Assembly: GCA_023205875.1 (NCBI GenBank)
Contig: CP060773.1
Coordinates: 310,001-374,000, forward strand
Reading direction: 5' to 3'
DNA: 64,000 nt
DNA from: Chloropicon primus
Lineage: Eukaryota
The translations under genes and the position numbers were made by a program. Below are positions 24,001 to 57,505 of this stretch, piece after piece. Every line of letters starts with the position of its first letter. Within the stretch, counting starts at the first letter, position 1. Under the pieces are notes generated by a model. That model was not told the DNA's origin. It saw nothing but the letters and a program-made list of their open reading frames with translations, and did not search any database.

Positions 24001-27000
24001 AGCCATCAGCCACGGTAAACTTGTCCGAGTCCATCGTCAAACCACCATTCAACACAGTGGCACCAGTAACAGTGATAGCACCAGTAACACCCAAGGTACC
24101 AGCGATGGCAGTATTACCAGAGCCATCAGCCACGGTAAACTTGTCCGAGTCCATCGTCAAACCACCATTCAACACAGTGGCGCCAGTAACAGTAGTGTCA
24201 CCAGTAACACCCAAGGTACCAGCGATGGCAGTATTACCAGAGCCATCAGCCACGGTAAACTTGTCCGAGTCCATCGTCAAACCACCATTCAACACAGTGG
24301 CGCCAGTAACAGTAGTGTCACCAGTAACACCCAAGGTACCAGCGATGTCAGTATTACCAGAGTCATCAGCCACGGTAAACTTGTCCGAGTCCATCGTCAA
24401 ACCACCATTCAACACAGTGGCGCCAGTAACAGTAGTGTCACCAGTAACACCCAAGGTACCAGCGATGGCAGTATTACCAGAGCCATCAGCCACGGTAAAC
24501 TTGTCCGAGTCCATCGTCAAACCACCATTCAACACAGTGGCGCCAGTAACACCCAAGGTACCAGCGATGGCAGTATTACCAGAGCCATCAGCCACGGTAA
24601 ACTTGTCCGAGTCCATCGTCAAACCACCATTCAACACAGTGGCACCAGTAACAGTAGTGTCACCAGTAACACCCAAGGTACCAGCGATGGCAGTATTACC
24701 AGTGTTATCAGCCACGGTAAACTTGTCCGAGTCCATCGTCAAACCACCATTCAACACAGTGGCGCCAGTAACAGTAGTGTCACCAGTAACACCCAAGGTA
24801 CCAGCGATGGCAGTATTACCAGAGTCATCAGCCACGGTAAACTTGTCCGAGTCCATTGTCAAACCACCATTCAACACAGTGGCGCCAGTAACAGTAGTGT
24901 CACCAGTAACACCCAAGGTACCAGTGATAGCAGTATTACCAGAGTCATCAGCCACGGTAAACTTGTCCGAGTCCATTGTCAAACCACCATTCAACACAGT
25001 GGCGCCAGTCGTTGTCAACGTACCAGCGATGGCAGTATTACCAGAGTCATCAGCCACGGTAAACTTGTCCGAGTCCATCGTCAAACCACCATTCAACACA
25101 GTGGCGCCAGTAACAGTAGTGTCACCAGTAACACCCAAGGTACCAGCGATGTCAGTATTACCAGAGCCATCAGCCACGGTAAACTTGTCCGAGTCCATCG
25201 TCAAACCACCATTCAACACAGTGGCGCCAGTAACAGTAGTGTCACCAGTAACACCCAAGGTACCAGCGATGTCAGTATTACCAGAGTCATCAGCCACGGT
25301 AAACTTGTCCGAGTCCATCGTCAAACCACCATTCAACACAGTGGCACCAGTAACAGTAGTGTCACCAGTAACACCCAAGGTACCAGCGATGGCAGTATTA
25401 CCAGAGTCATCAGCCACGGTAAACTTGTCCGAGTCCATTGTCAAACCACCATTCAACACAGTGGCGCCAGTCGTTGTCAACGTACCAGCGATGGCAGTAT
25501 TACCAGAGTCATCAGCCACGGTAAACTTGTCCGAGTCCATCGTCAAACCACCATTCAACACAGTGGCGCCAGTAACAGTAGTGTCACCAGTAACACCCAA
25601 GGTACCAGCGATGTCAGTATTACCAGAGCCATCAGCCACGGTAAACTTGTCCGAGTCCATCGTCAAACCACCATTCAACACAGTGGCGCCAGTAACAGTA
25701 GTGTCACCAGTAACACCCAAGGTACCAGCGATGGCAGTATTACCAGAGTCATCAGCCACGGTAAACTTGTCCGAGTCCATCGTCAAACCACCATTCAACA
25801 CAGTGGCGCCAGTAACAGTAGTGTCACCAGTAACACCCAAGGTACCAGCGATGGCAGTATTACCAGAGTCATCAGCCACGGTAAACTTGTCCGAGTCCAT
25901 CGTCAAACCACCATTCAACACAGTGGCGCCAGTAACAGTAGTGTCACCAGTAACACCCAAGGTACCAGCGATGGCAGTATTACCAGTGTTATCAGCCACG
26001 GTAAACTTGTCCGAGTCCATCGTCAAACCACCATTCAACACAGTGGCGCCAGTCGTTGTCAACGTACCAGCGATGGCAGTATTACCAGAGTCATCAGCCA
26101 CGGTAAACTTGTCCGAGTCCATCGTCAAACCACCATTCAACACAGTGGCGCCAGTAACACCCAAGGTACCAGCGATGGCAGTATTACCAGAGCCATCAGC
26201 CACGGTAAACTTGTCCGAGTCCATCGTCAAACCACCATTCAACACAGTGGCACCAGTAACAGTGATAGCACCAGTAACACCCAAGGTACCAGCGATGGCA
26301 GTATTACCAGAGTCATCAGCCACGGTAAACTTGTCCGAGTCCATCGTCAAACCACCATTCAACACAGTGGCGCCAGTAACAGTAGTGTCACCAGTAACAC
26401 CCAAGGTACCAGCGATGGCAGTATTACCAGAGCCATCAGCCACGGTAAACTTGTCCGAGTCCATCGTCAAACCACCATTCAACACAGTGGCGCCAGTAAC
26501 AGTAGTGTCACCAGTAACACCCAAGGTACCAGCGATGTCAGTATTACCAGAGTCATCAGCCACGGTAAACTTGTCCGAGTCCATCGTCAAACCACCATTC
26601 AACACAGTGGCGCCAGTAACAGTAGTGTCACCAGTAACACCCAAGGTACCAGCGATGTCAGTATTACCAGAGCCATCAGCCACGGTAAACTTGTCCGAGT
26701 CCATCGTCAAACCACCATTCAACACAGTGGCGCTAGTAACACCCAAGGTACCAGCGATGGCAGTATTACCAGAGCCATCAGCCACGGTAAACTTGTCCGA
26801 GTCCATCGTCAAACCACCATTCAACACAGTGGCGCCAGTAACACCCAAGGTACCAGCGATGGCAGTATTACCAGAGCCATCAGCCACGGTAAACTTGTCC
26901 GAGTCCATCGTCAAACCACCATTCAACACAGTGGCGCCAGTAACAGTAGTGTCACCAGTAACACCCAAGGTACCAGCGATGGCAGTATTACCAGTGTTAT

Positions 27001-30000
27001 CAGCCACGGTAAACTTGTCCGAGTCCATCGTCAAACCACCATTCAACACAGTGGCACCAGTAACAGTGATAGCACCAGTAACACCCAAGGTACCAGCGAT
27101 GGCAGTATTACCAGAGCCATCAGCCACGGTAAACTTGTCCGAGTCCATCGTCAAACCACCATTCAACACAGTGGCGCCAGTAACAGTGGTGTCACCAGTA
27201 ACACCCAAGGTACCAGCGATGGCAGTATTACCAGAGCCATCAGCCACGGTAAACTTGTCCGAGTCCATCGTCAAACCACCTTTCAACACAGTGGCGCCAG
27301 TAACAGTAGTGTCACCAGTAACACCCAAGGTACCAGCGATGGCAGTATTACCAGAGTCATCAGCCACGGTAAACTTGTCCGAGTCCATTGTCAAACCACC
27401 ATTCAACACAGTGGCGCCAGTAACAGTAGTGTCACCAGTAACACCCAAGGTACCAGCGATGGCAGTATTACCAGAGTCATCAGCCACGGTAAACTTGTCC
27501 GAGTCCATCGTCAAACCACCATTCAACACAGTGGCACCAGTCGTTGTCAACGTACCAGCGATGTCAGTATTACCAGAGCCATCAGCCACGGTAAACTTGT
27601 CCGAGTCCATCGTCAAACCACCATTCAACACAGTGGCGCCAGTAACAGTAGTGTCACCAGTAACACCCAAGGTACCAGCGATGGCAGTATTACCAGAGGC
27701 ATCAGCCACGGTAAACTTGTCCGAGTCCATCGTCAAACCACCATTCAACACAGTGGCGCCAGTCGTTGTCAACGTACCAGCGATGGCAGTATTACCAGAG
27801 TCATCAGCCACGGTAAACTTGTCCGAGTCCATTGTCAAACCACCATTCAACACAGTGGCGCCAGTAACAGTAGTGTCACCAGTAACACCCAAGGTACCAG
27901 CGATGGCAGTATTACCAGAGTCATCAGCCACGGTAAACTTGTCCGAGTCCATTGTCAAACCACCATTCAACACAGTGGCGCCAGTAACAGTAGTGTCACC
28001 AGTAACACCCAAGGTACCAGCGATGGCAGTATTACCAGAGTCATCAGCCACGGTAAACTTGTCCGAGTCCATCGTCAAACCACCATTCAACACAGTGGCA
28101 CCAGTCGTTGTCAACGTACCAGCGATGTCAGTATTACCAGAGCCATCAGCCACGGTAAACTTGTCCGAGTCCATCGTCAAACCACCATTCAACACAGTGG
28201 CGCCAGTAACAGTAGTGTCACCAGTAACACCCAAGGTACCAGCGATGGCAGTATTACCAGAGTCATCAGCCACGGTAAACTTGTCCGAGTCCATCGTCAA
28301 ACCACCATTCAACACAGTGGCGCCAGTCGTTGTCAACGTACCAGCGATGGCAGTATTACCAGAGTCATCAGCCACGGTAAACTTGTCCGAGTCCATTGTC
28401 AAACCACCATTCAACACAGTGGCGCCAGTAACAGTAGTGTCACCAGTAACACCCAAGGTACCAGCGATGGCAGTATTACCAGAGTCATCAGCCACGGTAA
28501 ACTTGTCCGAGTCCATTGTCAAACCACCATTCAACACAGTGGCGCCAGTAACAGTAGTGTCACCAGTAACACCCAAGGTACCAGCGATGGCAGTATTACC
28601 AGAGTCATCAGCCACGGTAAACTTGTCCGAGTCCATCGTCAAACCACCATTCAACACAGTGGCACCAGTCGTTGTCAACGTACCAGCGATGTCAGTATTA
28701 CCAGAGCCATCAGCCACGGTAAACTTGTCCGAGTCCATCGTCAAACCACCATTCAACACAGTGGCGCCAGTAACAGTAGTGTCACCAGTAACACCCAAGG
28801 TACCAGCGATGGCAGTATTACCAGAGTCATCAGCCACGGTAAACTTGTCCGAGTCCATCGTCAAACCACCATTCAACACAGTGGCGCCAGTAACAGTAGT
28901 GTCACCAGTAACACCCAAGGTACCAGCGATGGCAGTATTACCAGAGTCATCAGCCACGGTAAACTTGTCCGAGTCCATCGTCAAACCACCATTCAACACA
29001 GTGGCGCCAGTCGTTGTCAACGTACCAGCGATGGCAGTATTACCAGAGTCATCAGCCACGGTAAACTTGTCCGAGTCCATTGTCAAACCACCATTCAACA
29101 CAGTGGCGCCAGTAACAGTAGTGTCACCAGTAACACCCAAGGTACCAGCGATGGCAGTATTACCAGAGTCATCAGCCACGGTAAACTTGTCCGAGTCCAT
29201 CGTCAAACCACCATTCAACACAGTGGCGCCAGTCGTTGTCAACGTACCAGCGATGGCAGTATTACCAGAGTCATCAGCCACGGTAAACTTGTCCGAGTCC
29301 ATCGTCAAACCACCATTCAACACAGTGGCACCAGTAACAGTAGTGTCACCAGTAACACCCAAGGTACCAGCGATGGCAGTATTACCAGTGCCATCAGCCA
29401 CGGTAAACGTGTTTGTATCCATTGTTAAACCACCATTCAACACAGTGGCACCAGTCGTTGTCAACGTACCAGCGATGTCAGTATTACCAGAGCCATCAGC
29501 CACGGTAAACTTGTCCGAGTCCATCGTCAAACCACCATTCAACACAGTGGCGCCAGTAACAGTAGTGTCACCAGTAACACCCAAGGTACCAGCGATGGCA
29601 GTATTACCAGAGTCATCAGCCACGGTAAACTTGTCCGAGTCCATCGTCAAACCACCATTCAACACAGTGGCGCCAGTAACAGTAGTGTCACCAGTAACAC
29701 CCAAGGTACCAGCGATGGCAGTATTACCAGAGCCATCAGCCACGGTAAACTTGTCCGAGTCCATCGTCAAACCACCATTCAACACAGTGGCGCCAGTCGT
29801 TGTCAACGTACCAGCGATGGCAGTATTACCAGAGTCATCAGCCACGGTAAACTTGTCCGAGTCCATTGTCAAACCACCATTCAACACAGTGGCGCCAGTA
29901 ACAGTAGTGTCACCAGTAACACCCAAGGTACCAGCGATGGCAGTATTACCAGAGTCATCAGCCACGGTAAACTTGTCCGAGTCCATCGTCAAACCACCAT

Positions 30001-30225
30001 TCAACACAGTGGCGCCAGTCGTTGTCAACGTACCAGCGATGGCAGTATTACCAGAGTCATCAGCCACGGTAAACTTGTCCGAGTCCATCGTCAAACCACC
30101 ATTCAACACAGTGGCACCAGTAACAGTAGTGTCACCAGTAACACCCAAGGTACCAGCGATGGCAGTATTACCAGTGCCATCAGCCACGGTAAACGTGTTT
30201 GTATCCATTGTTAAACCACCATTGA
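1..30225 (-). repeat. Coding tandem array of about 260 units of 120 bp (GNTAIAGTLGVTGDTTVTGATVLNGGLTMDSDKFTVADDS) interspersed with 102-bp variants lacking one 6-aa module
   Basis: 120-bp periodicity is directly visible. The 20132..30364 (3410 aa) and 14037..20138 (2033 aa) ORFs read through it without stops. The unit count is estimated from array length. Confidence 0.97.
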
Positions 30226-33200
30226 TGGATAAATCTTTTTCAATATGTAGGTTTTTGAAAACGATGCGTCTGCTTTGGCATCGAGGACAAAGTCCGTTGT
30301 AAGGAATCCGCCCTTTTCTAATTGAAAAAATTGTTTTGATTGTCGAACTCAAAAGAACTCGCATCTACATATAAAGACCCTCGATTGCTTTCTCCGCTTC
30401 CAGTGGATAAGAAAATAGAACCGGACGAACCAAAGGTAGACAAACCTGTGGCAACAACAATGTCGCCGCTAACGCCCGCCACGCCCGCATCGGGGGTCTG
30501 CACTTGGATCTCGCCGCTATCCGTGGAGGTGCTGCGACCACTGGTCAGCTGGAGAGCACCACCGGTGGACATCTCAGATGTGCCACCAGTCACAGCAATG
30601 TCGCCACCAAGGCCATACATCGTGCTGCTGCTCAAGCCAGCGGACACAAGCACGTGGCCCCAGCACCCGTGTCCCCGTCGCCCACGACGAGCTCGATCGA
30701 GCCTCCAGATCCGCCCACGGAGGAACCACTCGAGACTCCAATGTCACCAGAGGAGCCGAGGTCGATGAACCCGTGGTCAGGTTCAGGTCCCCGCTCACGC
30801 CGCTCACACCAGCGTCAACCGTGCCAACGCTGATGTGGCCGCTGTGGCCACCAGCACTCTTGCCGCTCAGCATGGAGATGCTGCCGCCGGTTCCAGCTTG
30901 GGAGGCGCCACCAGAGATGCTCACATTGCCACCGTGATCGGTGCTCGTGCTCAGGCCTTGGGCCTCACCACCAATCAGGTAAAGGCCACCGCCATCGCCG
31001 CCATCACTGATGTCCGTGCTGCTGCCGGTGCCAGCAACGACACGCATCTCGCCTCCTTGGCCGCCGGAGCTGCTGCTCAGGCCAGAGGACAAGAGCATGT
31101 GGCCGCCAACACCAGTGTCCCCGTCGCCGATGACGAGCTCGATGGAGCCACCAGAACCACCAACGGCACTGCCTGTCAAGACGTCAACAGTACCAGAGTC
31201 GCCCTGGCTGGCGGCACCAGTGGCAACAACAATGTCGCCGCTAACGCCCGCCACGCCCGCATCGGGGTCTGCACTTGGATCTCGCCGCTATCCGTGGAGG
31301 TGCTGCGACCACTGGTCAGCTGGAGAGCACCACCGGTGGACATCTCAGATGTGCCACCAGTCACAGCAATGTCGCCACCAAGGCCATACATCGTGCTGCT
31401 GCTCAAGCCAGCGGACACAAGCACGTGGCCCCCAGCACCCGTGTCCCCGTCGCCCACGACGAGCTCGATCGAGCCTCCAGATCCGCCCACGGAGGAACCA
31501 CTCGAGACTCCAATGTCACCAGAGGAGCCCGAGGTCGATGAACCCGTGGTCAGGTTCAGGTCCCCGCTCACGCCGCTCACACCAGCGTCAACCGTGCCAA
31601 CGCTGATGTGGCCGCTGTGGCCACCAGCACTCTTGCCGCTCAGCATGGAGATGCTGCCGCCGGTTCCAGCTTGGGAGGCGCCACCAGAGATGCTCACATT
31701 GCCACCGTGATCGGTGCTCGTGCTCAGGCCTTGGGCCTCACCACCAATCAGGTAAAGGCCACCGCCATCGCCGCCATCACTGATGTCCGTGCTGCTGCCG
31801 GTGCCAGCAACGACACGCATCTCGCCTCCTTGGCCGCCGGAGCTGCTGCTCAGGCCAGAGGACAAGAGCATGTGGCCGCCAACACCAGTGTCCCCGTCGC
31901 CGATGACGAGCTCGATGGAGCCACCAGAACCACCAACGGCACTGCCTGTCAAGACGTCAACAGTACCAGAGTCGCCCTGGCTGGCGGCACCAGTGGCAAC
32001 AACAATGTCGCCGCTAACGCCCGCCACGCCCGCATCGGGGTCTGCACTTGATCTCGCCGCTATCCGTGGAGGTGCTGCGACCACTGGTCAGCTGGAGAGC
32101 ACCACCGGTGGACATCTCAGATGTGCCACCAGTCACAGCAATGTCGCCACCAAGGCCATACATCGTGCTGCTGCTCAAGCCAGCGGACACAAGCACGTGG
32201 CCCCCAGCACCCGTGTCCCCGTCGCCCACGACGAGCTCGATCGAGCCTCCAGATCCGCCCACGGAGGAACCACTCGAGACTCCAATGTCACCAGAGGAGC
32301 CCGAGGTCGATGAACCCGTGGTCAGGTTCAGGTCCCCGCTCACGCCGCTCACACCAGCGTCAACCGTGCCAACGCTGATGTGGCCGCTGTGGCCACCAGC
32401 ACTCTTGCCGCTCAGCATGGAGATGCTGCCGCCGGTTCCAGCTTGGGAGGCGCCACCAGAGATGCTCACATTGCCACCGTGATCGGTGCTCGTGCTCAGG
32501 CCTTGGGCCTCACCACCAATCAGGTAAAGGCCACCGCCATCGCCGCCATCACTGATGTCCGTGCTGCTGCCGGTGCCAGCAACGACACGCATCTCGCCTC
32601 CTTGGCCGCCGGAGCTGCTGCTCAGGCCAGAGGACAAGAGCATGTGGCCGCCAACACCAGTGTCCCCGTCGCCGATGACGAGCTCGATGGAGCCACCAGA
32701 ACCACCAACGGCACTGCCTGTCAAGACGTCAACAGTACCAGAGTCGCCCTGGCTGGCGGCACCAGTGGCAACAACAATGTCGCCGCTAACGCCCGCCACG
32801 CCCGCATCGGGGGTCTGCACTTGATCTCGCCGCTATCCGTGGAGGTGCTGCGACCACTGGTCAGCTGGAGAGCACCACCGGTGGACATCTCAGATGTGCC
32901 ACCAGTCACAGCAATGTCGCCACCAAGGCCATACATCGTGCTGCTGCTCAAGCCAGCGGACACAAGCACGTGGCCCCCAGCACCCGTGTCCCCGTCGCCC
33001 ACGACGAGCTCGATCGAGCCTCCAGATCCGCCCACGGAGGAACCACTCGAGACTCCAATGTCACCAGAGGAGCCCGAGGTCGATGAACCCGTGGTCAGGT
33101 TCAGGTCCCCGCTCACGCCGCTCACACCAGCGTCAACCGTGCCAACGCTGATGTGGCCGCTGTGGCCACCAGCACTCTTGCCGCTCAGCATGGAGATGCT

Positions 33201-36200
33201 GCCGCCGGTTCCAGCTTGGGAGGCGCCACCAGAGATGCTCACATTGCCACCGTGATCGGTGCTCGTGCTCAGGCCTTGGGCCTCACCACCAATCAGGTAA
33301 AGGCCACCGCCATCGCCGCCATCACTGATGTCCGTGCTGCTGCCGGTGCCAGCAACGACACGCATCTCGCCTCCTTGGCCGCCGGAGCTGCTGCTCAGGC
33401 CAGAGGACAAGAGCATGTGGCCGCCAACACCAGTGTCCCCGTCGCCGATGACGAGCTCGATGGAGCCACCAGAACCACCAACGGCACTGCCTGTCAAGAC
33501 GTCAACAGTACCAGAGTCGCCCTGGCTGGCGGCACCAGTGGCAACAACAATGTCGCCGCTAACGCCCGCCACGCCCGCATCGGGGGTCTGCACTTGGATC
33601 TCGCCGCTATCCGTGGAGGTGCTGCGACCACTGGTCAGCTGGAGAGCACCACCGGTGGACATCTCAGATGTGCCACCAGTCACAGCAATGTCGCCACCAA
33701 GGCCATACATCGTGCTGCTGCTCAAGCCAGCGGACACAAGCACGTGGCCCCCAGCACCCGTGTCCCCGTCGCCCACGACGAGCTCGATCGAGCCTCCAGA
33801 TCCGCCCACGGAGGAACCACTCGAGACTCCAATGTCACCAGAGGAGCCCGAGGTCGATGAACCCGTGGTCAGGTTCAGGTCCCCGCTCACGCCGCTCACA
33901 CCAGCGTCAACCGTGCCAACGCTGATGTGGCCGCTGTGGCCACCAGCACTCTTGCCGCTCAGCATGGAGATGCTGCCGCCGGTTCCAGCTTGGGAGGCGC
34001 CACCAGAGATGCTCACATTGCCACCGTGATCGGTGCTCGTGCTCAGGCCTTGGGCCTCACCACCAATCAGGTAAAGGCCACCGCCATCGCCGCCATCACT
34101 GATGTCCGTGCTGCTGCCGGTGCCAGCAACGACACGCATCTCGCCTCCTTGGCCGCCGGAGCTGCTGCTCAGGCCAGAGGACAAGAGCATGTGGCCGCCA
34201 ACACCAGTGTCCCCGTCGCCGATGACGAGCTCGATGGAGCCACCAGAACCACCAACGGCACTGCCTGTCAAGACGTCAACAGTACCAGAGTCGCCCTGGC
34301 TGGCGGCACCAGTGGCAACAACAATGTCGCCGCTAACGCCCGCCACGCCCGCATCGGGGGTCTGCACTTGGATCTCGCCGCTATCCGTGGAGGTGCTGCG
34401 ACCACTGGTCAGCTGGAGAGCACCACCGGTGGACATCTCAGATGTGCCACCAGTCACAGCAATGTCGCCACCAAGGCCATACATCGTGCTGCTGCTCAAG
34501 CCAGCGGACACAAGCACGTGGCCCCCAGCACCCGTGTCCCCGTCGCCCACGACGAGCTCGATCGAGCCTCCAGATCCGCCCACGGAGGAACCACTCGAGA
34601 CTCCAATGTCACCAGAGGAGCCCGAGGTCGATGAACCCGTGGTCAGGTTCAGGTCCCCGCTCACGCCGCTCACACCAGCGTCAACCGTGCCAACGCTGAT
34701 GTGGCCGCTGTGGCCACCAGCACTCTTGCCGCTCAGCATGGAGATGCTGCCGCCGGTTCCAGCTTGGGAGGCGCCACCAGAGATGCTCACATTGCCACCG
34801 TGATCGGTGCTCGTGCTCAGGCCTTGGGCCTCACCACCAATCAGGTAAAGGCCACCGCCATCGCCGCCATCACTGATGTCCGTGCTGCTGCCGGTGCCAG
34901 CAACGACACGCATCTCGCCTCCTTGGCCGCCGGAGCTGCTGCTCAGGCCAGAGGACAAGAGCATGTGGCCGCCAACACCAGTGTCCCCGTCGCCGATGAC
35001 GAGCTCGATGGAGCCACCAGAACCACCAACGGCACTGCCTGTCAAGACGTCAACAGTACCAGAGTCGCCCTGGCTGGCGGCACCAGTGGCAACAACAATG
35101 TCGCCGCTAACGCCCGCCACGCCCGCATCGGGGTCTGCACTTGGATCTCGCCGCTATCCGTGGAGGTGCTGCGACCACTGGTCAGCTGGAGAGCACCACC
35201 GGTGGACATCTCAGATGTGCCACCAGTCACAGCAATGTCGCCACCAAGGCCATACATCGTGCTGCTGCTCAAGCCAGCGGACACAAGCACGTGGCCCCCA
35301 GCACCCGTGTCCCCGTCGCCCACGACGAGCTCGATCGAGCCTCCAGATCCGCCCACGGAGGAACCACTCGAGACTCCAATGTCACCAGAGGAGCCCGAGG
35401 TCGATGAACCCGTGGTCAGGTTCAGGTCCCCGCTCACGCCGCTCACACCAGCGTCAACCGTGCCAACGCTGATGTGGCCGCTGTGGCCACCAGCACTCTT
35501 GCCGCTCAGCATGGAGATGCTGCCGCCGGTTCCAGCTTGGGAGGCGCCACCAGAGATGCTCACATTGCCACCGTGATCGGTGCTCGTGCTCAGGCCTTGG
35601 GCCTCACCACCAATCAGGTAAAGGCCACCGCCATCGCCGCCATCACTGATGTCCGTGCTGCTGCCGGTGCCAGCAACGACACGCATCTCGCCTCCTTGGC
35701 CGCCGGAGCTGCTGCTCAGGCCAGAGGACAAGAGCATGTGGCCGCCAACACCAGTGTCCCCGTCGCCGATGACGAGCTCGATGGAGCCACCAGAACCACC
35801 AACGGCACTGCCTGTCAAGACGTCAACAGTACCAGAGTCGCCCTGGCTGGCGGCACCAGTGGCAACAACAATGTCGCCGCTAACGCCCGCCACGCCCGCA
35901 TCGGGGGTCTGCACTTGGATCTCGCCGCTATCCGTGGAGGTGCTGCGACCACTGGTCAGCTGGAGAGCACCACCGGTGGACATCTCAGATGTGCCACCAG
36001 TCACAGCAATGTCGCCACCAAGGCCATACATCGTGCTGCTGCTCAAGCCAGCGGACACAAGCACGTGGCCCCCAGCACCCGTGTCCCCGTCGCCCACGAC
36101 GAGCTCGATCGAGCCTCCAGATCCGCCCACGGAGGAACCACTCGAGACTCCAATGTCACCAGAGGAGCCCGAGGTCGATGAACCCGTGGTCAGGTTCAGG

Positions 36201-39200
36201 TCCCCGCTCACGCCGCTCACACCAGCGTCAACCGTGCCAACGCTGATGTGGCCGCTGTGGCCACCAGCACTCTTGCCGCTCAGCATGGAGATGCTGCCGC
36301 CGGTTCCAGCTTGGGAGGCGCCACCAGAGATGCTCACATTGCCACCGTGATCGGTGCTCGTGCTCAGGCCTTGGGCCTCACCACCAATCAGGTAAAGGCC
36401 ACCGCCATCGCCGCCATCACTGATGTCCGTGCTGCTGCCGGTGCCAGCAACGACACGCATCTCGCCTCCTTGGCCGCCGGAGCTGCTGCTCAGGCCAGAG
36501 GACAAGAGCATGTGGCCGCCAACACCAGTGTCCCCGTCGCCGATGACGAGCTCGATGGAGCCACCAGAACCACCAACGGCACTGCCTGTCAAGACGTCAA
36601 CAGTACCAGAGTCGCCCTGGCTGGCGGCACCAGTGGCAACAACAATGTCGCCGCTAACGCCCGCCACGCCCGCATCGGGGTCTGCACTTGGATCTCGCCG
36701 CTATCCGTGGAGGTGCTGCGACCACTGGTCAGCTGGAGAGCACCACCGGTGGACATCTCAGATGTGCCACCAGTCACAGCAATGTCGCCACCAAGGCCAT
36801 ACATCGTGCTGCTGCTCAAGCCAGCGGACACAAGCACGTGGCCCCCAGCACCCGTGTCCCCGTCGCCCACGACGAGCTCGATCGAGCCTCCAGATCCGCC
36901 CACGGAGGAACCACTCGAGACTCCAATGTCACCAGAGGAGCCCGAGGTCGATGAACCCGTGGTCAGGTTCAGGTCCCCGCTCACGCCGCTCACACCAGCG
37001 TCAACCGTGCCAACGCTGATGTGGCCGCTGTGGCCACCAGCACTCTTGCCGCTCAGCATGGAGATGCTGCCGCCGGTTCCAGCTTGGGAGGCGCCACCAG
37101 AGATGCTCACATTGCCACCGTGATCGGTGCTCGTGCTCAGGCCTTGGGCCTCACCACCAATCAGGTAAAGGCCACCGCCATCGCCGCCATCACTGATGTC
37201 CGTGCTGCTGCCGGTGCCAGCAACGACACGCATCTCGCCTCCTTGGCCGCCGGAGCTGCTGCTCAGGCCAGAGGACAAGAGCATGTGGCCGCCAACACCA
37301 GTGTCCCCGTCGCCGATGACGAGCTCGATGGAGCCACCAGAACCACCAACGGCACTGCCTGTCAAGACGTCAACAGTACCAGAGTCGCCCTGGCTGGCGG
37401 CACCAGTGGCAACAACAATGTCGCCGCTAACGCCCGCCACGCCCGCATCGGGGGTCTGCACTTGGATCTCGCCGCTATCCGTGGAGGTGCTGCGACCACT
37501 GGTCAGCTGGAGAGCACCACCGGTGGACATCTCAGATGTGCCACCAGTCACAGCAATGTCGCCACCAAGGCCATACATCGTGCTGCTGCTCAAGCCAGCG
37601 GACACAAGCACGTGGCCCCCAGCACCCGTGTCCCCGTCGCCCACGACGAGCTCGATCGAGCCTCCAGATCCGCCCACGGAGGAACCACTCGAGACTCCAA
37701 TGTCACCAGAGGAGCCCGAGGTCGATGAACCCGTGGTCAGGTTCAGGTCCCCGCTCACGCCGCTCACACCAGCGTCAACCGTGCCAACGCTGATGTGGCC
37801 GCTGTGGCCACCAGCACTCTTGCCGCTCAGCATGGAGATGCTGCCGCCGGTTCCAGCTTGGGAGGCGCCACCAGAGATGCTCACATTGCCACCGTGATCG
37901 GTGCTCGTGCTCAGGCCTTGGGCCTCACCACCAATCAGGTAAAGGCCACCGCCATCGCCGCCATCACTGATGTCCGTGCTGCTGCCGGTGCCAGCAACGA
38001 CACGCATCTCGCCTCCTTGGCCGCCGGAGCTGCTGCTCAGGCCAGAGGACAAGAGCATGTGGCCGCCAACACCAGTGTCCCCGTCGCCGATGACGAGCTC
38101 GATGGAGCCACCAGAACCACCAACGGCACTGCCTGTCAAGACGTCAACAGTACCAGAGTCGCCCTGGCTGGCGGCACCAGTGGCAACAACAATGTCGCCG
38201 CTAACGCCCGCCACGCCCGCATCGGGGGTCTGCACTTGGATCTCGCCGCTATCCGTGGAGGTGCTGCGACCACTGGTCAGCTGGAGAGCACCACCGGTGG
38301 ACATCTCAGATGTGCCACCAGTCACAGCAATGTCGCCACCAAGGCCATACATCGTGCTGCTGCTCAAGCCAGCGGACACAAGCACGTGGCCCCCAGCACC
38401 CGTGTCCCCGTCGCCCACGACGAGCTCGATCGAGCCTCCAGATCCGCCCACGGAGGAACCACTCGAGACTCCAATGTCACCAGAGGAGCCCGAGGTCGAT
38501 GAACCCGTGGTCAGGTTCAGGTCCCCGCTCACGCCGCTCACACCAGCGTCAACCGTGCCAACGCTGATGTGGCCGCTGTGGCCACCAGCACTCTTGCCGC
38601 TCAGCATGGAGATGCTGCCGCCGGTTCCAGCTTGGGAGGCGCCACCAGAGATGCTCACATTGCCACCGTGATCGGTGCTCGTGCTCAGGCCTTGGGCCTC
38701 ACCACCAATCAGGTAAAGGCCACCGCCATCGCCGCCATCACTGATGTCCGTGCTGCTGCCGGTGCCAGCAACGACACGCATCTCGCCTCCTTGGCCGCCG
38801 GAGCTGCTGCTCAGGCCAGAGGACAAGAGCATGTGGCCGCCAACACCAGTGTCCCCGTCGCCGATGACGAGCTCGATGGAGCCACCAGAACCACCAACGG
38901 CACTGCCTGTCAAGACGTCAACAGTACCAGAGTCGCCCTGGCTGGCGGCACCAGTGGCAACAACAATGTCGCCGCTAACGCCCGCCACGCCCGCATCGGG
39001 GTCTGCACTTGGATCTCGCCGCTATCCGTGGAGGTGCTGCGACCACTGGTCAGCTGGAGAGCACCACCGGTGGACATCTCAGATGTGCCACCAGTCACAG
39101 CAATGTCGCCACCAAGGCCATACATCGTGCTGCTGCTCAAGCCAGCGGACACAAGCACGTGGCCCCCAGCACCCGTGTCCCCGTCGCCCACGACGAGCTC

Positions 39201-42200
39201 GATCGAGCCTCCAGATCCGCCCACGGAGGAACCACTCGAGACTCCAATGTCACCAGAGGAGCCCGAGGTCGATGAACCCGTGGTCAGGTTCAGGTCCCCG
39301 CTCACGCCGCTCACACCAGCGTCAACCGTGCCAACGCTGATGTGGCCGCTGTGGCCACCAGCACTCTTGCCGCTCAGCATGGAGATGCTGCCGCCGGTTC
39401 CAGCTTGGGAGGCGCCACCAGAGATGCTCACATTGCCACCGTGATCGGTGCTCGTGCTCAGGCCTTGGGCCTCACCACCAATCAGGTAAAGGCCACCGCC
39501 ATCGCCGCCATCACTGATGTCCGTGCTGCTGCCGGTGCCAGCAACGACACGCATCTCGCCTCCTTGGCCGCCGGAGCTGCTGCTCAGGCCAGAGGACAAG
39601 AGCATGTGGCCGCCAACACCAGTGTCCCCGTCGCCGATGACGAGCTCGATGGAGCCACCAGAACCACCAACGGCACTGCCTGTCAAGACGTCAACAGTAC
39701 CAGAGTCGCCCTGGCTGGCGGCACCAGTGGCAACAACAATGTCGCCGCTAACGCCCGCCACGCCCGCATCGGGGTCTGCACTTGGATCTCGCCGCTATCC
39801 GTGGAGGTGCTGCGACCACTGGTCAGCTGGAGAGCACCACCGGTGGACATCTCAGATGTGCCACCAGTCACAGCAATGTCGCCACCAAGGCCATACATCG
39901 TGCTGCTGCTCAAGCCAGCGGACACAAGCACGTGGCCCCCAGCACCCGTGTCCCCGTCGCCCACGACGAGCTCGATCGAGCCTCCAGATCCGCCCACGGA
40001 GGAACCACTCGAGACTCCAATGTCACCAGAGGAGCCCGAGGTCGATGAACCCGTGGTCAGGTTCAGGTCCCCGCTCACGCCGCTCACACCAGCGTCAACC
40101 GTGCCAACGCTGATGTGGCCGCTGTGGCCACCAGCACTCTTGCCGCTCAGCATGGAGATGCTGCCGCCGGTTCCAGCTTGGGAGGCGCCACCAGAGATGC
40201 TCACATTGCCACCGTGATCGGTGCTCGTGCTCAGGCCTTGGGCCTCACCACCAATCAGGTAAAGGCCACCGCCATCGCCGCCATCACTGATGTCCGTGCT
40301 GCTGCCGGTGCCAGCAACGACACGCATCTCGCCTCCTTGGCCGCCGGAGCTGCTGCTCAGGCCAGAGGACAAGAGCATGTGGCCGCCAACACCAGTGTCC
40401 CCGTCGCCGATGACGAGCTCGATGGAGCCACCAGAACCACCAACGGCACTGCCTGTCAAGACGTCAACAGTACCAGAGTCGCCCTGGCTGGCGGCACCAG
40501 TGGCAACAACAATGTCGCCGCTAACGCCCGCCACGCCCGCATCGGGGGTCTGCACTTGGATCTCGCCGCTATCCGTGGAGGTGCTGCGACCACTGGTCAG
40601 CTGGAGAGCACCACCGGTGGACATCTCAGATGTGCCACCAGTCACAGCAATGTCGCCACCAAGGCCATACATCGTGCTGCTGCTCAAGCCAGCGGACACA
40701 AGCACGTGGCCCCCAGCACCCGTGTCCCCGTCGCCCACGACGAGCTCGATCGAGCCTCCAGATCCGCCCACGGAGGAACCACTCGAGACTCCAATGTCAC
40801 CAGAGGAGCCCGAGGTCGATGAACCCGTGGTCAGGTTCAGGTCCCCGCTCACGCCGCTCACACCAGCGTCAACCGTGCCAACGCTGATGTGGCCGCTGTG
40901 GCCACCAGCACTCTTGCCGCTCAGCATGGAGATGCTGCCGCCGGTTCCAGCTTGGGAGGCGCCACCAGAGATGCTCACATTGCCACCGTGATCGGTGCTC
41001 GTGCTCAGGCCTTGGGCCTCACCACCAATCAGGTAAAGGCCACCGCCATCGCCGCCATCACTGATGTCCGTGCTGCTGCCGGTGCCAGCAACGACACGCA
41101 TCTCGCCTCCTTGGCCGCCGGAGCTGCTGCTCAGGCCAGAGGACAAGAGCATGTGGCCGCCAACACCAGTGTCCCCGTCGCCGATGACGAGCTCGATGGA
41201 GCCACCAGAACCACCAACGGCACTGCCTGTCAAGACGTCAACAGTACCAGAGTCGCCCTGGCTGGCGGCACCAGTGGCAACAACAATGTCGCCGCTAACG
41301 CCCGCCACGCCCGCATCGGGGTCTGCACTTGGATCTCGCCGCTATCCGTGGAGGTGCTGCGACCACTGGTCAGCTGGAGAGCACCACCGGTGGACATCTC
41401 AGATGTGCCACCAGTCACAGCAATGTCGCCACCAAGGCCATACATCGTGCTGCTGCTCAAGCCAGCGGACACAAGCACGTGGCCCCCAGCACCCGTGTCC
41501 CCGTCGCCCACGACGAGCTCGATCGAGCCTCCAGATCCGCCCACGGAGGAACCACTCGAGACTCCAATGTCACCAGAGGAGCCCGAGGTCGATGAACCCG
41601 TGGTCAGGTTCAGGTCCCCGCTCACGCCGCTCACACCAGCGTCAACCGTGCCAACGCTGATGTGGCCGCTGTGGCCACCAGCACTCTTGCCGCTCAGCAT
41701 GGAGATGCTGCCGCCGGTTCCAGCTTGGGAGGCGCCACCAGAGATGCTCACATTGCCACCGTGATCGGTGCTCGTGCTCAGGCCTTGGGCCTCACCACCA
41801 ATCAGGTAAAGGCCACCGCCATCGCCGCCATCACTGATGTCCGTGCTGCTGCCGGTGCCAGCAACGACACGCATCTCGCCTCCTTGGCCGCCGGAGCTGC
41901 TGCTCAGGCCAGAGGACAAGAGCATGTGGCCGCCAACACCAGTGTCCCCGTCGCCCACGACGAGCTCGATCGAGCCTCCAGATCCGCCCACGGAGGAACC
42001 ACTCGAGACTCCAATGTCACCAGAGGAGCCCGAGGTCGATGAACCCGTGGTCAGGTTCAGGTCCCCGCTCACGCCGCTCACACCAGCGTCAACCGTGCCA
42101 ACGCTGATGTGGCCGCTGTGGCCACCAGCACTCTTGCCGCTCAGCATGGAGATGCTGCCGCCGGTTCCAGCTTGGGAGGCGCCACCAGAGATGCTCACAT

Positions 42201-45200
42201 TGCCACCGTGATCGGTGCTCGTGCTCAGGCCTTGGGCCTCACCACCAATCAGGTAAAGGCCACCGCCATCGCCGCCATCACTGATGTCCGTGCTGCTGCC
42301 GGTGCCAGCAACGACACGCATCTCGCCTCCTTGGCCGCCGGAGCTGCTGCTCAGGCCAGAGGACAAGAGCATGTGGCCGCCAATACCAGTGTCCCCGTCG
42401 CCGATGACGAGCTCGATGGAGCCACCAGAACCACCAACGGCACTGCCTGTCAAGACGTCAACAGTACCAGAGTCGCCCTGGCTGGCGGCACCAGTGGCAA
42501 CAACAATGTCGCCGCTAACGCCCGCCACGCCCGCATCGGGGTCTGCACTTGATCTCGCCGCTATCCGTGGAGGTGCTGCGACCACTGGTCAGCTGGAGAG
42601 CACCACCGGTGGACATCTCAGATGTGCCACCAGTCACAGCAATGTCGCCACCAAGGCCATACATCGTGCTGCTGCTCAAGCCAGCGGACACAAGCACGTG
42701 GCCCCCAGCACCCGTGTCCCCGTCGCCCACGACGAGCTCGATTGAACCTCCTGATCCACCAACGGCACTTCCTGTGAAGATTGCGACAGCACCAGAGCTG
42801 GCCTGCGTTGTTCTTCCGGTGGTTAAGGCAAGGCTTCCACTAGGGGCCTGTTTTGATGATCCTGTTTTAATTTCGATAGAACCTGATTCTGTTGTTGCGT
42901 GTTTTGTCTTGGAATTTGTGCTTCCAGTTGATAGTTGCAGGTTTCCTGTCTTACCATTTTGTGAATTCTCGCCAGTGATTAATGTTATGTTTCCACTTGT
43001 GGCGTTGTTGCCTTTTCCACTTGTGAGATATATTGAGCCTCCAGTAGAATTGTTCTCGCCTGCATCTCCAGCATTGACCTTGATATCACCAGCGGCTGAG
43101 TTTGGTTGATTAGTGCTGCCTGAAGATATGTTCAGTTCACTGCCAAGCGCATTCCATGACTTTCCAACTGATATTTGAATTGGGCCAGCACTTCCTGTGA
43201 GTGATTCACCGCTTTGGAGATTGATGGCTCCAGAGTTGTCCACAGCAATGCCAGTAGAAAGTTCGATGGCACCACTTTGTCCAAAAGTGGAATGAGTGTC
43301 AGATGTTTTCAATGAGATATCGCCTGTTTTCATTTTGCCAAAACCACTTGTCAATGACAGATTTCCACCTGATCCAAATGTAGCTGCCCCTCCACTTAAA
43401 AGAACAGAACCACCAGCATCAATGTTGGGATTCCCACCAAAGCCATCACCTCCACTTATTTCAACGACTCCTCCATTGCCGCCGTCAGAAAGATCAGCGG
43501 AAGATCCCTTTCCTGCAGTCAAAGTTATGTTGCCTCCATGACCCCCTAATGAACTTTCTGTTGCCTCGCCAGCAACAACTGTAAATGATCCTGCTGTAGA
43601 ACCCTTTACGGAGGATGAACCGGCATGCATAGATATAGATGCTCCTAGATCTGCAACACTTGACCCTGCTCGGACTTTGATGTCTCCTGCGTTTCCATTC
43701 GTACTATTTCCTGAAGCAATATTGATGCCACCTGAATTTCCAGTCAAACTATTTCCTGAAGAAACTTCAATTGCGCCAGAATCTATACTGGTAAGAACAG
43801 AGTCTCCTATCTCACCAGTTCTCAGCATGATTGCTCCGCTCTTCCCAGCAGCACTTGTACTTTCACCTGTGAGCAATTCAATATTTCCACCAGAACCTAA
43901 GCTATTTGCTCCTGATGTCAAACTTATGTGACCTCCTGGGTTGCCATTGCTTTTGCCAGATTGAAAGGAAATGCTTCCTGCGGATGATGCAAAGGAGTTG
44001 CCGGTTTCAAATTCCAAGTTCCCTGAATTGCTTACTGAGGATCCCCCAGTGGTAATGGAGACAGACCCACTCCTTCCATTTGTACTGTACGGACTGACGA
44101 TGTCTATATTCCCTGTGTTTCCATTTTTTGATGCTCCTGCAATCAGCAGGACGTTTCCTCCTTGAGAATCAGATGCTGATGAGCCACCCTGTATGAAAAC
44201 GGAGCCTCCTCCTGCAAATTCTGAAGAAACTTCCCTCTGCATATTGCCAGCTTTCAGAATCACATTTCCAGCAGACATCCTTTCCGAATCGCCACCCCGG
44301 ACAAGAGCATTACCGCCAGAGCAAGATCTCTTGCATACATCTAAATTGTCAACAGAGTTCGAATATGTCAAGTAGTCATCGATACTCAATTCCACCAGTA
44401 GATCGCCGCAAACATAAGCTTTGCCAGTGAATTCACAGCCTTGAATCAAAGCATTGTATATCAAGAGCGGCAGTTCCAGTCCATCACAATTCATGACTTC
44501 TTGTGAGCTCGTGCAATCGAGGTACGACGTGCTTCTTTCTGCACCTCCAACAAGGGAGGAGGAGCCGGCATACCCTCCATCTGAACTGGACCCTGCCGCT
44601 AAGTGAAGGCTTCCGGCCTGGGAACCATAGTTTGAAGTACTCCCGGCATCTAAATGAAGACTTACTCCATCCGCTAACCGCATGTCATCGAACGCGTTGC
44701 TGCATTCATCATTTTCACAGCTATCAGACCTTCCATTTGCAGCTGTGATGGAGAAAACCGGTTTCTCTGCTCTATTCACATGTAGGCCAATATCTCCAAA
44801 CGGCAAATTCTCGTCATCAAATTGAGCAAACCGTTTCATATACTGGGAGTTGCCTAGTTTCATTCTACTGTGAGGTATTTCTATGTCGCCAAAGGTTTCC
44901 ATGATTTTTCCTCCAGAAATAGTGGCGTTTACATGACTACCGCCGATACTAATGTTTCCAAAGCCTTCTGAAATCGATCCAGAAACCAGGTCACCCACTA
45001 CCCTAAAATTATCTACATCTACACTGACTAACCCGTCTTCACTAATGCCAAGGCCAACCCCTGCCTTGACTGCTATCGTACCACTTGAGTCTGGAAGATT
45101 GATTGTTCTCGAAAGTGTAGGTTCAGATATCCGTAGCGTTGTTGTCACCCTGTTGACTACTTCCCCTTCGAATGAAAATGCCCTTCTCCCCAATACACGA

Positions 45201-46840
45201 TTGAAATCAACAAACTCTGATGATATGTGCCCTTCATCCCCTAAATCTATTGGCCCAAATCCCGGTTCAATTGAACCGCTGCTAACTTTGCCCAAACCAG
45301 TGATGTCACTTTGGTTTAATTCCAAATGCCCCGTTTCCCCATTCAATACAAGTGGATATGATACATCAACTACTATTGTTCCGTTGTTGTCTGGGACTAC
45401 AATAGTGTTGTTACTGACTGAAGGTCCTTCGACTTTCAGAGCAGTAACGAAGCCGTCACTTTCGGACAGACCGTCAAACAAGAGAGGAAATTCACCACCT
45501 ATTGAGCCTTGGAAAGTGATGACGTTGTTCGTCGTGACGTTCTGTACCTCCCTGACCACAACAGATCCCCCAAGCTCCACTGTGCCATTCTTGTCCACGG
45601 AGATTGGTTCTGGTCTTGTATCATTTTCTCTCTTCTTGCCGAGTTTCAAGCTTCCGGCTAGTTCAACTTGACCGTTCTCACTGGATTCTAGCTTCACATT
45701 TCCCGTCTGCGACGCGATGGTTATGTTTGCTGTAGAATTCAAAGAGAGTCCATCAGCATTGATTTCTAGCATGCCTCCGCCAGCTTCGTTGCCTGACGAT
45801 ATTTTTGTGGCATTTGCAGTGAACTCCATAACAGGCTTATCGTCCTTCTGCATCACAACCTGCTCTCCGCCTCCAAAAGCATATACTCCAAAAGCAGCAT
45901 CACTCTCCTCTGTTGCTACCACCAAACCAGCAGGCTGGCCTTGTCCCGATCTGATTTCTAGCGTCGCAGAGCCCTCCCCGTCTCCAATGACAACATCAGG
46001 GTTTACCTCCGCTTCACCATCTTGCAGCAGCCTTCTCCTCTTTGGGTCTGCTATTTTGGGCGCCAACGTTTTGCTCCCAAATCGAACTGGGCCGTCGACG
46101 TCCAAGAGCACGTCAGTAGGTGAGGAGTCATCCACCGGTCCCCTCTTTACGAGCAAGCTGCTTTGAATCATTTCCAAGCTTCCCGCGGATGTTGTCCGAA
46201 GGAGGGCACGGGTATGGAAGTTGTCCTCCATGTATGTGCCAAAAGACAAAATCTCATCCGCCTTGTCTGTGCTTTCTGTCGTGTGGCTTGCGATTCTTAT
46301 GTGCGCCTGTGGCGTCACCCCTTGCTCCAGCAGGGAGTAGGGGTTAGGACCGTGAGCTTGGCCGTAAACTTCCAAGGCCTCGTTCACGCTCACAAAATCT
46401 CCTTGCGCCTCCACTTTGAAGTAGACTGAGACGACCACAGCAGAGGCCCAAATGAGGAGAATGGCGTGCATGAAAAGAAGCAAGAGCATGCTTGACAACT
46501 GTGCACACGCAATAAGAAGCTGCCGGCTGGCCTTCTTGATCTGGTTGGGATTCCTCCTCCCGGCATCTGCTTTCGACGTCCCAACAGGTTTTCTCCCCTT
46601 CCCCGGGTCTGGTGCAATCTTCGCCGACTTTGCCTTCTTCTTCTTCTTCACTGTCCTCAAGGGATTCGCGGAGGGCTTTGGCTCGGCGAACTTCACCTTG
46701 GACGTGATTCTTTGTGTGGTTTCAAGCGCAGAGACGGGCGCCGCTTGAGTTAGGACACAGGTTCGACGAGCGCGGTAGAGGGGAAGACGCAGAGGCACTT
46801 ACTTGTTTATCTTCTCGGGCTGAATCCTGGAGCTCAACAT
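1..46840 (-). CDS. Giant repetitive membrane-anchored/extracellular fibre-like protein (>15,500 aa, 3' end outside window); exon 1 46840-46803, intron 46802-46710, exon 2 46709 to <1 with apparent assembly frameshifts
   Basis: ATG at 46840 reads MLSSRIQPEKIN-AA, then a GTAAGT donor, a CTAAC branch-like motif and an AAG acceptor at 46710. The phase-2 join restores K-ITSKVKF into the 42515..46798 ORF. Successive minus-strand ORFs carry the same repeats in overlapping frames, linked by 1-2 nt indels, down to position 1. No terminal stop is seen. Confidence 0.8.
30450..42740 (-). repeat. Coding tandem array of about 15 near-identical 774-bp units (258 aa, Gly/Ser-rich, 16 internal [SG]G-x-h-x-h-x-x-G coils) plus one 447-bp truncated unit
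   Basis: Identical ORFs recur every 772-774 bp (33153, 33927, 34701...). The spacing between 41662 and 42109 is 447 bp. Confidence 0.97.
46710..46802 (-). other. Spliceosomal intron (93 nt) of the giant gene
   Basis: GTAAGT...CCTAAC...ACACAAAG on the minus strand; removing it keeps the frame from the ATG at 46840. Confidence 0.75.
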
Positions 46841-47902
46841 CGCTGCTCTTCCTCTCTAGCGTGCGCCTTCGATCGATATGTGTGTATGCGTCCAGATCCA
46901 GCACAATTCGGAGTGCTCTATTCCTGGCACAACGTGTGTGTCTCCTCTGAACGCGCGTCGCCCACTCTAGCCTCTGGGACTTTTCCAAACCACTCTCAAA
47001 CCCATCTCGGGACCTTCAACCGCTTTTGTCATTCTCTCCGAGTCTCTCTCTCTCTCTCTCTGAGTCGTTCACACACACGCACACGCACACGCACTCCCTC
47101 TCCTCCTCCTCAGCTGCCTCGACTCTCTCGTCACTCGTTTCGTAGTTGGCCAATCCAAAAACAAAAATTTTTCTTCGATGCGCAGGACAGGACAAGCGAT
47201 TGGTCAGCACATTCTACCTTCCCTTCCCCTTTCGCGCGGGCGAAAGAGAGGGAGGGGGGGATCCCGTCCTCGCCATCCTCGCTTCGAGTCCGTGAGTTTG
47301 GGCCAGCCAATGCCACGCTGCCACGTCCATTCCGAGGCCAAGGGTGAACCAAAACGATTTCGTTCTCAAGATTCTCACCTCTCTTCTCTCCATTCACTTG
47401 GCTCGCTCGCTCTCCTCGCCCCTTCTCCTCTCTTCGCTCAGGAACGCAACCATCCATGACCACAAACCACGTCGTCGTGTTAATTCCATCCGTCCATTCC
47501 TCGTCATAAAATCCTCCACAGGACGCCATTTGTCGCAAGCGAGAGCTCAATCGAAAGCTTGCGAGATGCTTTTTCCAAAGATTGGTCACTTCATAACACC
47601 CGTCCCCGCTTTCGACTCGTGAGACCGATCGTACTCACCTTGGCCAATACGGTCTCACACTTCCCAGGAGAGCCGTCACGTTCCCCTCAAATGCCGCGCA
47701 TTTTTGGCGCGGCTTCCCGATCAGTCGACTCCGGTGGAGGAAGGCGGAACTTGGCGACGGTGTGGAGGCCAGAGGTGTATCTTGTCGAGGGGAAGGACGG
47801 GATCACGCGAAAGGGCGTCTCGCGAGCTTTCCAACGGTGGTCGGGTTCGGCATCCTGGCCGCGGTTTCGGATCGGAAACGTACCATTCTTCGCAAAAGGA
47901 GG
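46841..47902. promoter_or_regulatory. Divergent intergenic/promoter region between the giant gene and OPI10, with several CCAAT/ATTGG boxes
   Basis: Genes are head to head. CCAAT/ATTGG motifs occur near 47150, 47199, 47307, 47581 and 47644. Function is not demonstrated. Confidence 0.35.
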
Positions 47903-57062: not shown

Positions 57063-57087
57063 CGAATCCTGCCTTATCTCTCTCTAT

Positions 57088-57420
57088 CTCTGTGTGCTCA
57101 TGGGAATGCTGAGAGAGAGAGAGGGAGAGAAGAGAGGGATGATGATGATGATGGTGATGGTGATGGAGGTGATGAGAAGGAGAGAAGGGCATTGTCCTCC
57201 TCCTCTCTCTCTGTCTGTCTGTCTGTCTTTCTCTCTCTCTCTGTGTGCTCATGGGAATGCTGAGAGAGAGAGAGGGAGAGAAGAGAGGGATGATGATGAT
57301 GATGGTGATGGTGATGAGAAGGAGAGAAGGGCATTGTCCTCCTCCTCTCTCTCTCTCTCTCTCTGCCTGCCTGTCTCTCTCTCTGTCTGCTCATGGGGAA
57401 TGCTGAGAGAGAGGGAGAGG
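57088..57420. repeat. Intergenic ~140-150-bp imperfect tandem duplication (about 2.3 copies) built from GA/GAT/CT microsatellites
   Basis: The block gtgctcatgggaatgctgagagagag...gatgatgat...gagaaggagagaagggcattgtcctcctcctctctc recurs at about 57095 and 57245, with a partial copy at 57390. Confidence 0.85.
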
Positions 57421-57505
57421 GAGTGGAGCGAGTGAGTGAGTGATGATGATGGAGATGATCCTGGGTCATCGATTGTGTACAGTGAAGCGATGCCCTCCTT
57501 TTAAG

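Follow-up and report, generated by a model that had tools for sequence, protein, structure and literature searches.

We describe a giant gene on the minus strand of a 64,000-nucleotide (nt) stretch of Chloropicon primus DNA (NCBI GenBank assembly GCA_023205875.1, contig CP060773.1, positions 310,001 to 374,000; hereafter the window, with positions counted from its first letter), which carries near its start a tandem pair of modules of the type found in phage tail fibres. The modules are part of a genuine nuclear gene in an alga of the Chloropicon primus type, and we consider it reasonably probable that this gene encodes a trimeric, membrane-anchored fibre of up to ~1 micrometre. We found no literature report of a phage-type fibre as an algal nuclear surface protein in a search outside which most subscription papers and supplements lay, and the keyword passages of two Chloropicon genome papers (PMC12301720, PMC6731263; supplementary gene tables outside the search) do not describe the gene or its family. 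Cell-encoded phage-type fibres are already known in bacteria, where passages of PMC10769870 present the MAT proteins of Bdellovibrio.

Paired modules, a distal repeat and their phage counterparts

Both modules lie in one open reading frame (ORF) of 1427 codons (46798->42515, minus strand), which holds both peptides quoted in the initial annotation. Their cores occupy 45484-45239 (module 1, 82 amino acids (aa)) and 45178-44942 (module 2, 79 aa) of the minus strand, with starts 306 nt (102 aa) apart, and with a conserved upstream strand added they span ~45529-45239 and ~45223-44921. Each runs from motif A (FEG...T.L....P...RTI.LPD..G, ~40 aa) through a short linker to motif B (G.L.SGSI..GFG.I, ~27 aa). 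Local alignment of the two gave a BLOSUM62 score of 99, with identities in 25 of 69 columns (counted from the alignment); none of 20,000 shuffles reached this score (mean 30, maximum 71), and no comparison of non-overlapping 100-aa windows of the 1427-aa frame exceeded 61. The claim of the initial annotation that there are two homologous modules of ~90-100 aa is thereby borne out, the extended spans matching the size it gave.

A 212-aa segment matched the tail fibre family PHROG 38058 (E 0.006) and the gp17 tail fibre of Pelagibacter phage Kolga (tblastn E 1e-3), and a word-based protein search with the same segment (lengths 372-2000) recovered none of 4,245 candidates. Because these single-sequence matches were weak, we built phage-only profiles from 49 motif-A and 59 motif-B stretches of IMG/VR loci (Kolga is in the A set), with a mild circularity in that the algal sequence had steered the choice of the profile seed and of the selection patterns. 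The motif A profile matched residues 438-477 (13.2 bits) and 539-578 (40.5 bits) of the frame and the motif B profile residues 497-520 (12.5 bits) and 600-626 (17.4 bits), against best control scores of 5.1 (A) and 10.9 (B) among 1,000 shuffles and the reversed protein. All four matches fall where expected and in the right order, with near-gapless colinearity over ~95 columns. Further, Pelagibacter phage HTVC008M has 17 motif-A copies in four adjacent baseplate-region genes (gp59, gp62, gp63, and gp64), with A and B together in gp64. These comparisons support the view that the modules share building blocks with marine bacteriophage tail fibres, and the phage-only profiles and named carriers (Kolga, HTVC008M) confirm what had initially been proposed, namely that the motifs are those of marine phage structural or fibre proteins. 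A phmmer search of 1.84 billion representative proteins with the 596-aa ectodomain yielded 246 matches at E<=1e-3; among the 150 matches listed, 137 carried motif A, 11 motif B, and 8 both. One protein (P0045) had no match in viral contigs. ESM Atlas clusters at 0.92-0.93 (recognition under threshold) and a value of 0.97 for the Gly-rich region (low recognition) were kept as leads only.

The strongest phage link in the gene is a distal repeat (repeat C), which matched PHROG 697 at E 2e-79 summed across repeats and has relatives encoded by 357 stretches in IMG/VR. Its best phage match is identical in 31 of 34 residues (91%) and 82 of 102 bases and belongs to a 1597-aa fibre (L392) that adjoins T4-like Ad2 and Hc2 neck genes. 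Identity is at most 17/34 in the eukaryotic orthologues and at most 17/34 in bacterial loci fetched with motif A; between different phages it is 27-31 of 34 residues. As the repeat is well conserved across phages, the high identity suggests, rather than proves, a recent gain, and repeat C was probably acquired, or renewed, after the modules. Repeat C occurs with motif A and/or B in 13 distinct viral ORFs, 11 of which have all three, so the algal protein uses three parts that are joined in phage fibres. A tblastn search with repeat C and the Gly-rich region found no match in 50,697 phage records, probably owing to the low-complexity filter. Pfam matches on repeat C were rejected as repeat-summed noise.

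Module 2 is predicted to form an intertwined homotrimer. In the trimer modelling that the initial annotation had proposed, three copies, with alignment not used, passed at an interaction prediction score from aligned errors (ipSAE) of 0.86 (runs 0.89, 0.86, and 0.86), against 0.00 for the best of three controls, a pass that may reflect memory of solved fibres. The predicted local distance difference test score (pLDDT) was at least 81 and contact agreement between runs at least 86%, with inter-chain contacts along most of the chain, including residues 50-50 and 51-51. The ipSAE mark had been calibrated on two copies, not three: 21 of 30 solved homo-pairs passed it, whereas 0 of 23 monomers did. 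In a eukaryote set the figures were 17 of 29 homo-pairs and 0 of 30 monomers, but only 1 of 7 where no older relative had been solved. An AlphaFold2 (AF2) monomer of the module is an extended beta chain (pLDDT 76.6, predicted template modelling score 0.41); an AF2 model of the Gly-rich region (pLDDT 39.9) was discarded. Triple beta-spiral fibres (adenovirus shaft, reovirus sigma1) account for many of the weak PDB ranks (best E 3.3, template modelling score <=0.21), and the module linker may resemble triple beta-spiral repeats.

Orthologues and relatives

A metagenome scan with the N-terminal domain recovered 32 loci, of which 19 carry two modules, 6 one, and 7 none; the 13 loci with fewer than two may include truncated or intron-split copies. 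L192 and L193 share synteny with the upstream neighbour in the window (~56% identity), and GT-AG introns interrupt them within motif A1 and after A2. A second picoeukaryote lineage (L163-L187; several species, 54-57% GC) has Sec6, Ssl1/TFIIH p44, and a Rab-like GTPase in its flanks; of the 30 loci counted with these orthologues, 17 have both modules. In a third, intron-containing eukaryotic orthologue (L191, L194), one module was detected together with Gly-rich repeats and divergent relatives of repeat C, which indicates that the full layout predates Chloropicon. As the pair is present across lineages and has introns inside it, the tandem pair is a conserved, domesticated feature, and we infer that the modules arrived early, either before the split of the two picoeukaryote lineages or by early transfer between them. 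The orthologues' N-terminal ectodomain contains a fibre motif of the VGIGTxxPxxxL type, degenerate in the C. primus copy, and RRLL/RKLL stands upstream of the modules in 26 metagenome ORFs (L163-L187, L194) and in P0009 and P0170, and is missing from the more distant P0032. A 2006-aa transcript product from Gymnodinium smaydae (P0005, EukProt), for which a prey origin is possible, consists almost entirely of A+B modules (17 motif-A and 15 motif-B matches at >=10 bits; ~16 copies).

In a comparison of positions 42800-45925 with L192:5001-8195, the window copy has a G+C content at third codon positions (GC3) of 0.32-0.46 and is intronless; the relative is rich in GT-AG introns. Possibly, the C. 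primus copy lost its introns through a reverse-transcribed copy.

Viral and bacterial locus counts come from the best-80 lists per scan and are not a census, and the loci were fetched using the motifs themselves, so that shares denote presence, not frequency. On this footing, 41 of the 42 bacterial loci and 264 of the 315 viral ones contain motif A, and many of the bacterial ones are Patescibacteria with signal-peptide-like starts. In L271-L312, giants of Uhrbacteria and other Patescibacteria metagenome-assembled genomes (MAGs), motif A occurs up to 14 times per ORF. The top phmmer matches include the G. smaydae transcript product, an ENA protein that has 9 units, a 5074-aa protein that is like those of the candidate phyla radiation (CPR) and opens with a signal-peptide-like stretch, and proteins of Reichenbachiella, Patescibacteria, and Planctomycetes MAGs. 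Significant viral and bacterial matches, on which the initial annotation had made its claim depend, are present and span phages, Patescibacteria and other bacteria, and eukaryotes. Its larger statement, that the alga has built a surface giant from virus-related fibre parts, is supported with qualifications: the parts are common to phage fibres, but the pair was inherited and is not this alga's construction; the homology is sound, but because motif A is also common in bacterial giants "virus-related" does not equal viral acquisition; and the surface location is suggested by one hydrophobic helix and glycosylation sequons.

Trees of joined A and B columns (71 rows x 77 columns; 32 rows x 79 columns) were computed after excluding near-duplicates (L178, L179, L182, P0009, P0155, P0159, P0101), the intron-split L192/L193, a truncated L166 unit, and L200/P0150 (linker present, without a true motif B). 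Neither green-algal monophyly (p 0.34) nor a wider eukaryote-like clade (p 0.24) was rejected by approximately unbiased (AU) tests, an outcome that establishes neither of them.

Proposed fibre and competing readings

Table 1. Features of the fibre gene in window coordinates, listed from its 5' end
Feature	Positions	Strand	Basis or remark
Predicted exon 1, ATG at 46840	46803..46840	-	Spliced N-terminus agrees with the uninterrupted N-terminus of metagenome relative P0018
Predicted 93-nt GT-AG intron, CTAAC branch-like site at 46753	46710..46802	-	Predicted from sequence
Lys-rich N-terminal tail (~86 aa including exon 1), predicted cytoplasmic	46490..46709	-	Sequence; putative topology
Single hydrophobic helix, likely type II membrane anchor	46421..46489	-	Only Kyte-Doolittle peak >1.6 in 1427 aa; conserved in orthologues
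Conserved N-terminal ectodomain	45530..46420	-	Contains RR(R)LL at 46039-46025, a possible subtilase site
Module 1	45239..45529	-	Motif A 45487-45368, short linker, motif B 45310-45239
Module 2	44921..45223	-	Motif A 45184-45065, short linker, motif B 45001-44921; predicted intertwined homotrimer
8-cysteine segment, likely disulphide-bonded	44300..44720	-	Also found in a Chloropicon-type relative
Single-copy Gly/Ser-rich repeat region	42766..44299	-	Shared with orthologues
Gly-rich array with a 774-bp (258-aa) unit; the assembly shows 16 anchors	30440..42765	-	
Single-copy junction joining the two arrays	30224..30439	-	332-bp contig spans the junction in run X1
Repeat C array, ~262 units of 40 or 34 aa (102/120 bp)	1..30223	-	Exits at the window edge; phrog_697 match

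The gene has a spliceosomal-type structure, a hydrophobic helix near its start, two A+B modules, Gly-rich repeats, and ~260 phage-like repeats, and comes to 15,582 codons up to the window edge if all is one frame and the assembly is right. Its sequence suggests an extracellular location with a type II anchor, since 18 N-glycosylation sequons and the cysteine segment lie C-terminal to the helix (Table 1). The ectodomain would then enter the secretory lumen, where the modules are predicted to act as early, membrane-proximal trimer clamps that put three chains in register. A subtilase might cut the conserved RRLL and release the fibre from its anchor, RRLL/RKLL motifs being subtilase processing sites in plant precursors of pectin methylesterases (pro-PMEs), according to passages of 10.1101/2022.07.28.501549. 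In or beyond the wall, the product would act as a long spacer or adhesin, most likely bringing about contact with other cells, grazers, or viruses or protecting against them, the role that we prefer by analogy with MAT fibres and SwmB. Scaled from the ~550-Å model of Bdellovibrio Bd3182 (~920 aa) in the cited part of PMC10769870, the length would be ~0.9 µm, on a cell that passages of PMC5656628 put at 2-4 µm. We infer that the parts derive from a marine fibre pool of phages and Patescibacteria.

Set against known systems, the predicted fibre acts like a cell-encoded phage-type fibre, yet the features that define the phage fibre, MAT, and gralin families place it outside all three. Like fibre and baseplate-region proteins of marine and freshwater phages (Kolga gp17; HTVC008M gp59/62/63/64; PHROG 38058, 697, and 8215), it has A, B, and C, in phages often repeated and in one chain. 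Unlike them, the algal gene is nuclear with introns and host flanks, a membrane helix replaces the virion-docking end, A-to-B spacing is ~40 aa shorter than in sampled phage loci, and the protein exceeds 15,000 aa. Bdellovibrio MAT proteins (compared by description only, from passages of PMC10769870) and giant Patescibacteria fibres are similarly cell-encoded, mosaic, phage-related trimeric beta fibres, and one motif of the orthologues is similar to the MAT capping-loop consensus. Unlike those giants, the algal protein would use a eukaryotic secretory route and a type II anchor, with an 86-aa tail before the helix in place of a bacterial signal peptide and N-terminal beta domain; an S74 chaperone end was not seen within the window, the gene's end lying outside it. 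Gralins, prasinophyte scale-associated proteins, are likewise type II membrane proteins of green algae, and their ectodomain is probably prokaryotic in origin. By their description in PMC4494055, they are set apart by a size of 748-1,074 aa, an ~11-aa Ala/Arg-rich tail, and Ig-like (immunoglobulin-like) or ConA domains, none of which the algal fibre protein has. SwmB of Synechococcus WH8102 (10,791 aa) is a giant repetitive surface protein of picoplankton, with roles in swimming and grazing defence in passages of PMC4949707; it is bacterial and offers an analogy of role only.

Several results weigh against a phage-derived trimeric fibre on the cell surface. Pfam has no family on the module segment, PDB sequence searches returned nothing real, and a fold search with the module monomer reached a best E of 3.3 in PDB (Foldseek) and 0.063 in BFVD and no Z>=2 with VIA-align. 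The Chloropicon wall is described as smooth and layered in passages of PMC5656628, which speaks against an obvious filament coat. The sole sign of RNA is one 251-bp metatranscriptome contig, which could be DNA. The gene's 3' end and C-terminus lie beyond the window. Short-read contig depth over the 774-bp unit is ~5x single-copy, compared with 16 copies in the assembly, and although depth does not equal copy number the array length is thus uncertain, possibly inflated or variable. In addition, the phage A-to-B distance is ~40 aa wider (17 pairs in 237 loci). With strict profiles, 20 of 32 eukaryotic loci had the short spacing, against none of the 315 viral and none of the 42 bacterial ones; looser profiles found it in 1 of 42 bacterial loci (L271) and in the CPR-like 5074-aa protein (P0007). 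As the short spacing is thus seen in bacteria and not in sampled phages, a bacterial or unsampled intermediate is favoured. The trees left deep branches open and did not place the donor, which, together with the spacing pattern, keeps phage, bacterium, and polinton-like virus all in play.

The same structure could have come from another donor than a tailed phage. Secreted giant fibres of bacteria, Patescibacteria among them, may have supplied the modules, or these may have arrived through a polinton-like or giant virus, a contender to which we give slightly less than an even chance. The near-universal motif A of the bacterial MAG loci and the short-spaced bacterial pairs speak for it, as do a C-like repeat found together with motif A in a Saccharibacteria MAG and the polinton-like viruses that, in passages of PMC12220804, bring phage-like fibre genes into algal genomes, a possible route. 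Against it stand the 31/34 identity of repeat C to phage, compared with at most 17/34 to bacteria (a contrast biased toward phages, the bacterial loci having been fetched with A, not C), and the viral nearest tree neighbours of module 2, on a long, unsupported branch.

Alternatively, the protein may not project at all, being a gralin-like linker within the layered wall or a product cleaved and built into it. The type II topology shared with gralins (PMC4494055), the subtilase-type RRLL/RKLL motifs, and the smooth, layered surface would fit, but the tail is long and Lys-rich instead of 11 aa and Ala/Arg-rich, a Pfam scan found no Ig or ConA domain, and the protein is more than ten times gralin size; we regard a wall or scale anchor as unlikely, and prefer the projecting spacer or adhesin.

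More tentatively, and with some doubt, marine picoeukaryotes may share a family of giant membrane-anchored trimeric fibres made from phage parts, domesticated with introns and still recruiting phage repeats, as a micrometre-scale appendage that governs contact with bacteria, grazers, and viruses. If the gene is expressed as predicted, phage structural parts have entered eukaryote cell-surface biology and been conserved in abundant picoplankton, which would provide a concrete candidate for how picoplankton meet grazers, bacteria, and viruses, testable in a cultured alga.

Assembly support and neighbouring genes

The assembly contains many frameshifts across the gene, and all six tested proved to be single bases missing in the assembly and supplied by short-read contigs: gaps at 42537, 42550, 30657, and 30755 are filled in such contigs, and those at 30251 and 30324 in runs X1 and X2. 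A 9,153-bp short-read contig spans 42713-47600, skipping the repeat 47032-47114, with one substitution (45150) in the modules, and ties these to the upstream host region; the short-read runs may be the window's own source, so the contigs are not independent evidence. The array junction was bridged in run X1 only, and runs X12 and X19 gave no bridging contig. Sequencing runs in which the sequence makes up a small share offer no evidence on habitat. The frameshifts, and a GC3 of 0.38 in the module region against 0.74-0.80 in three flanking genes, might be read as signs of gene decay, of an endogenous viral fragment, or of an alga-phage assembly chimera. Such an origin is very improbable and already largely refuted by the filled frameshifts, the joining contigs, the introns, synteny, and orthologues, and the lack of a capsid, integrase, or packaging gene among the eight ORFs scanned, all in the 5' flank. 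Convergence between beta-rich repeats of low complexity, to which the short motifs (~40 and ~27 aa), the 12-13 bits per motif of module 1, and the weak single-sequence E-values might lend some colour, is barely credible and already refuted for module 2 and repeat C, given four profile matches in the expected place and order (the second motif A at 40.5 bits against 5.1 in shuffles), the ~95 near-gapless colinear columns, and a third shared part at 91% identity.

Seven of the eight flanking ORFs have Pfam families (IRE1-type kinase/RNase, bestrophin, Hikeshi, EXPERA, TruA, FKBP, and STI1), and the eighth falls in a 90% cluster with Chloropicon primus QDZ26095. On the minus strand, 48917-50797 encodes a conserved Chloropicon protein without a Pfam family that is syntenic with the fibre gene in L192, and the IRE1-type kinase/RNase at 58517-62569 bears two C-terminal CCCH zinc fingers. 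A microsatellite-rich 142-bp tandem repeat (2.6 copies) lies at 57078-57457.

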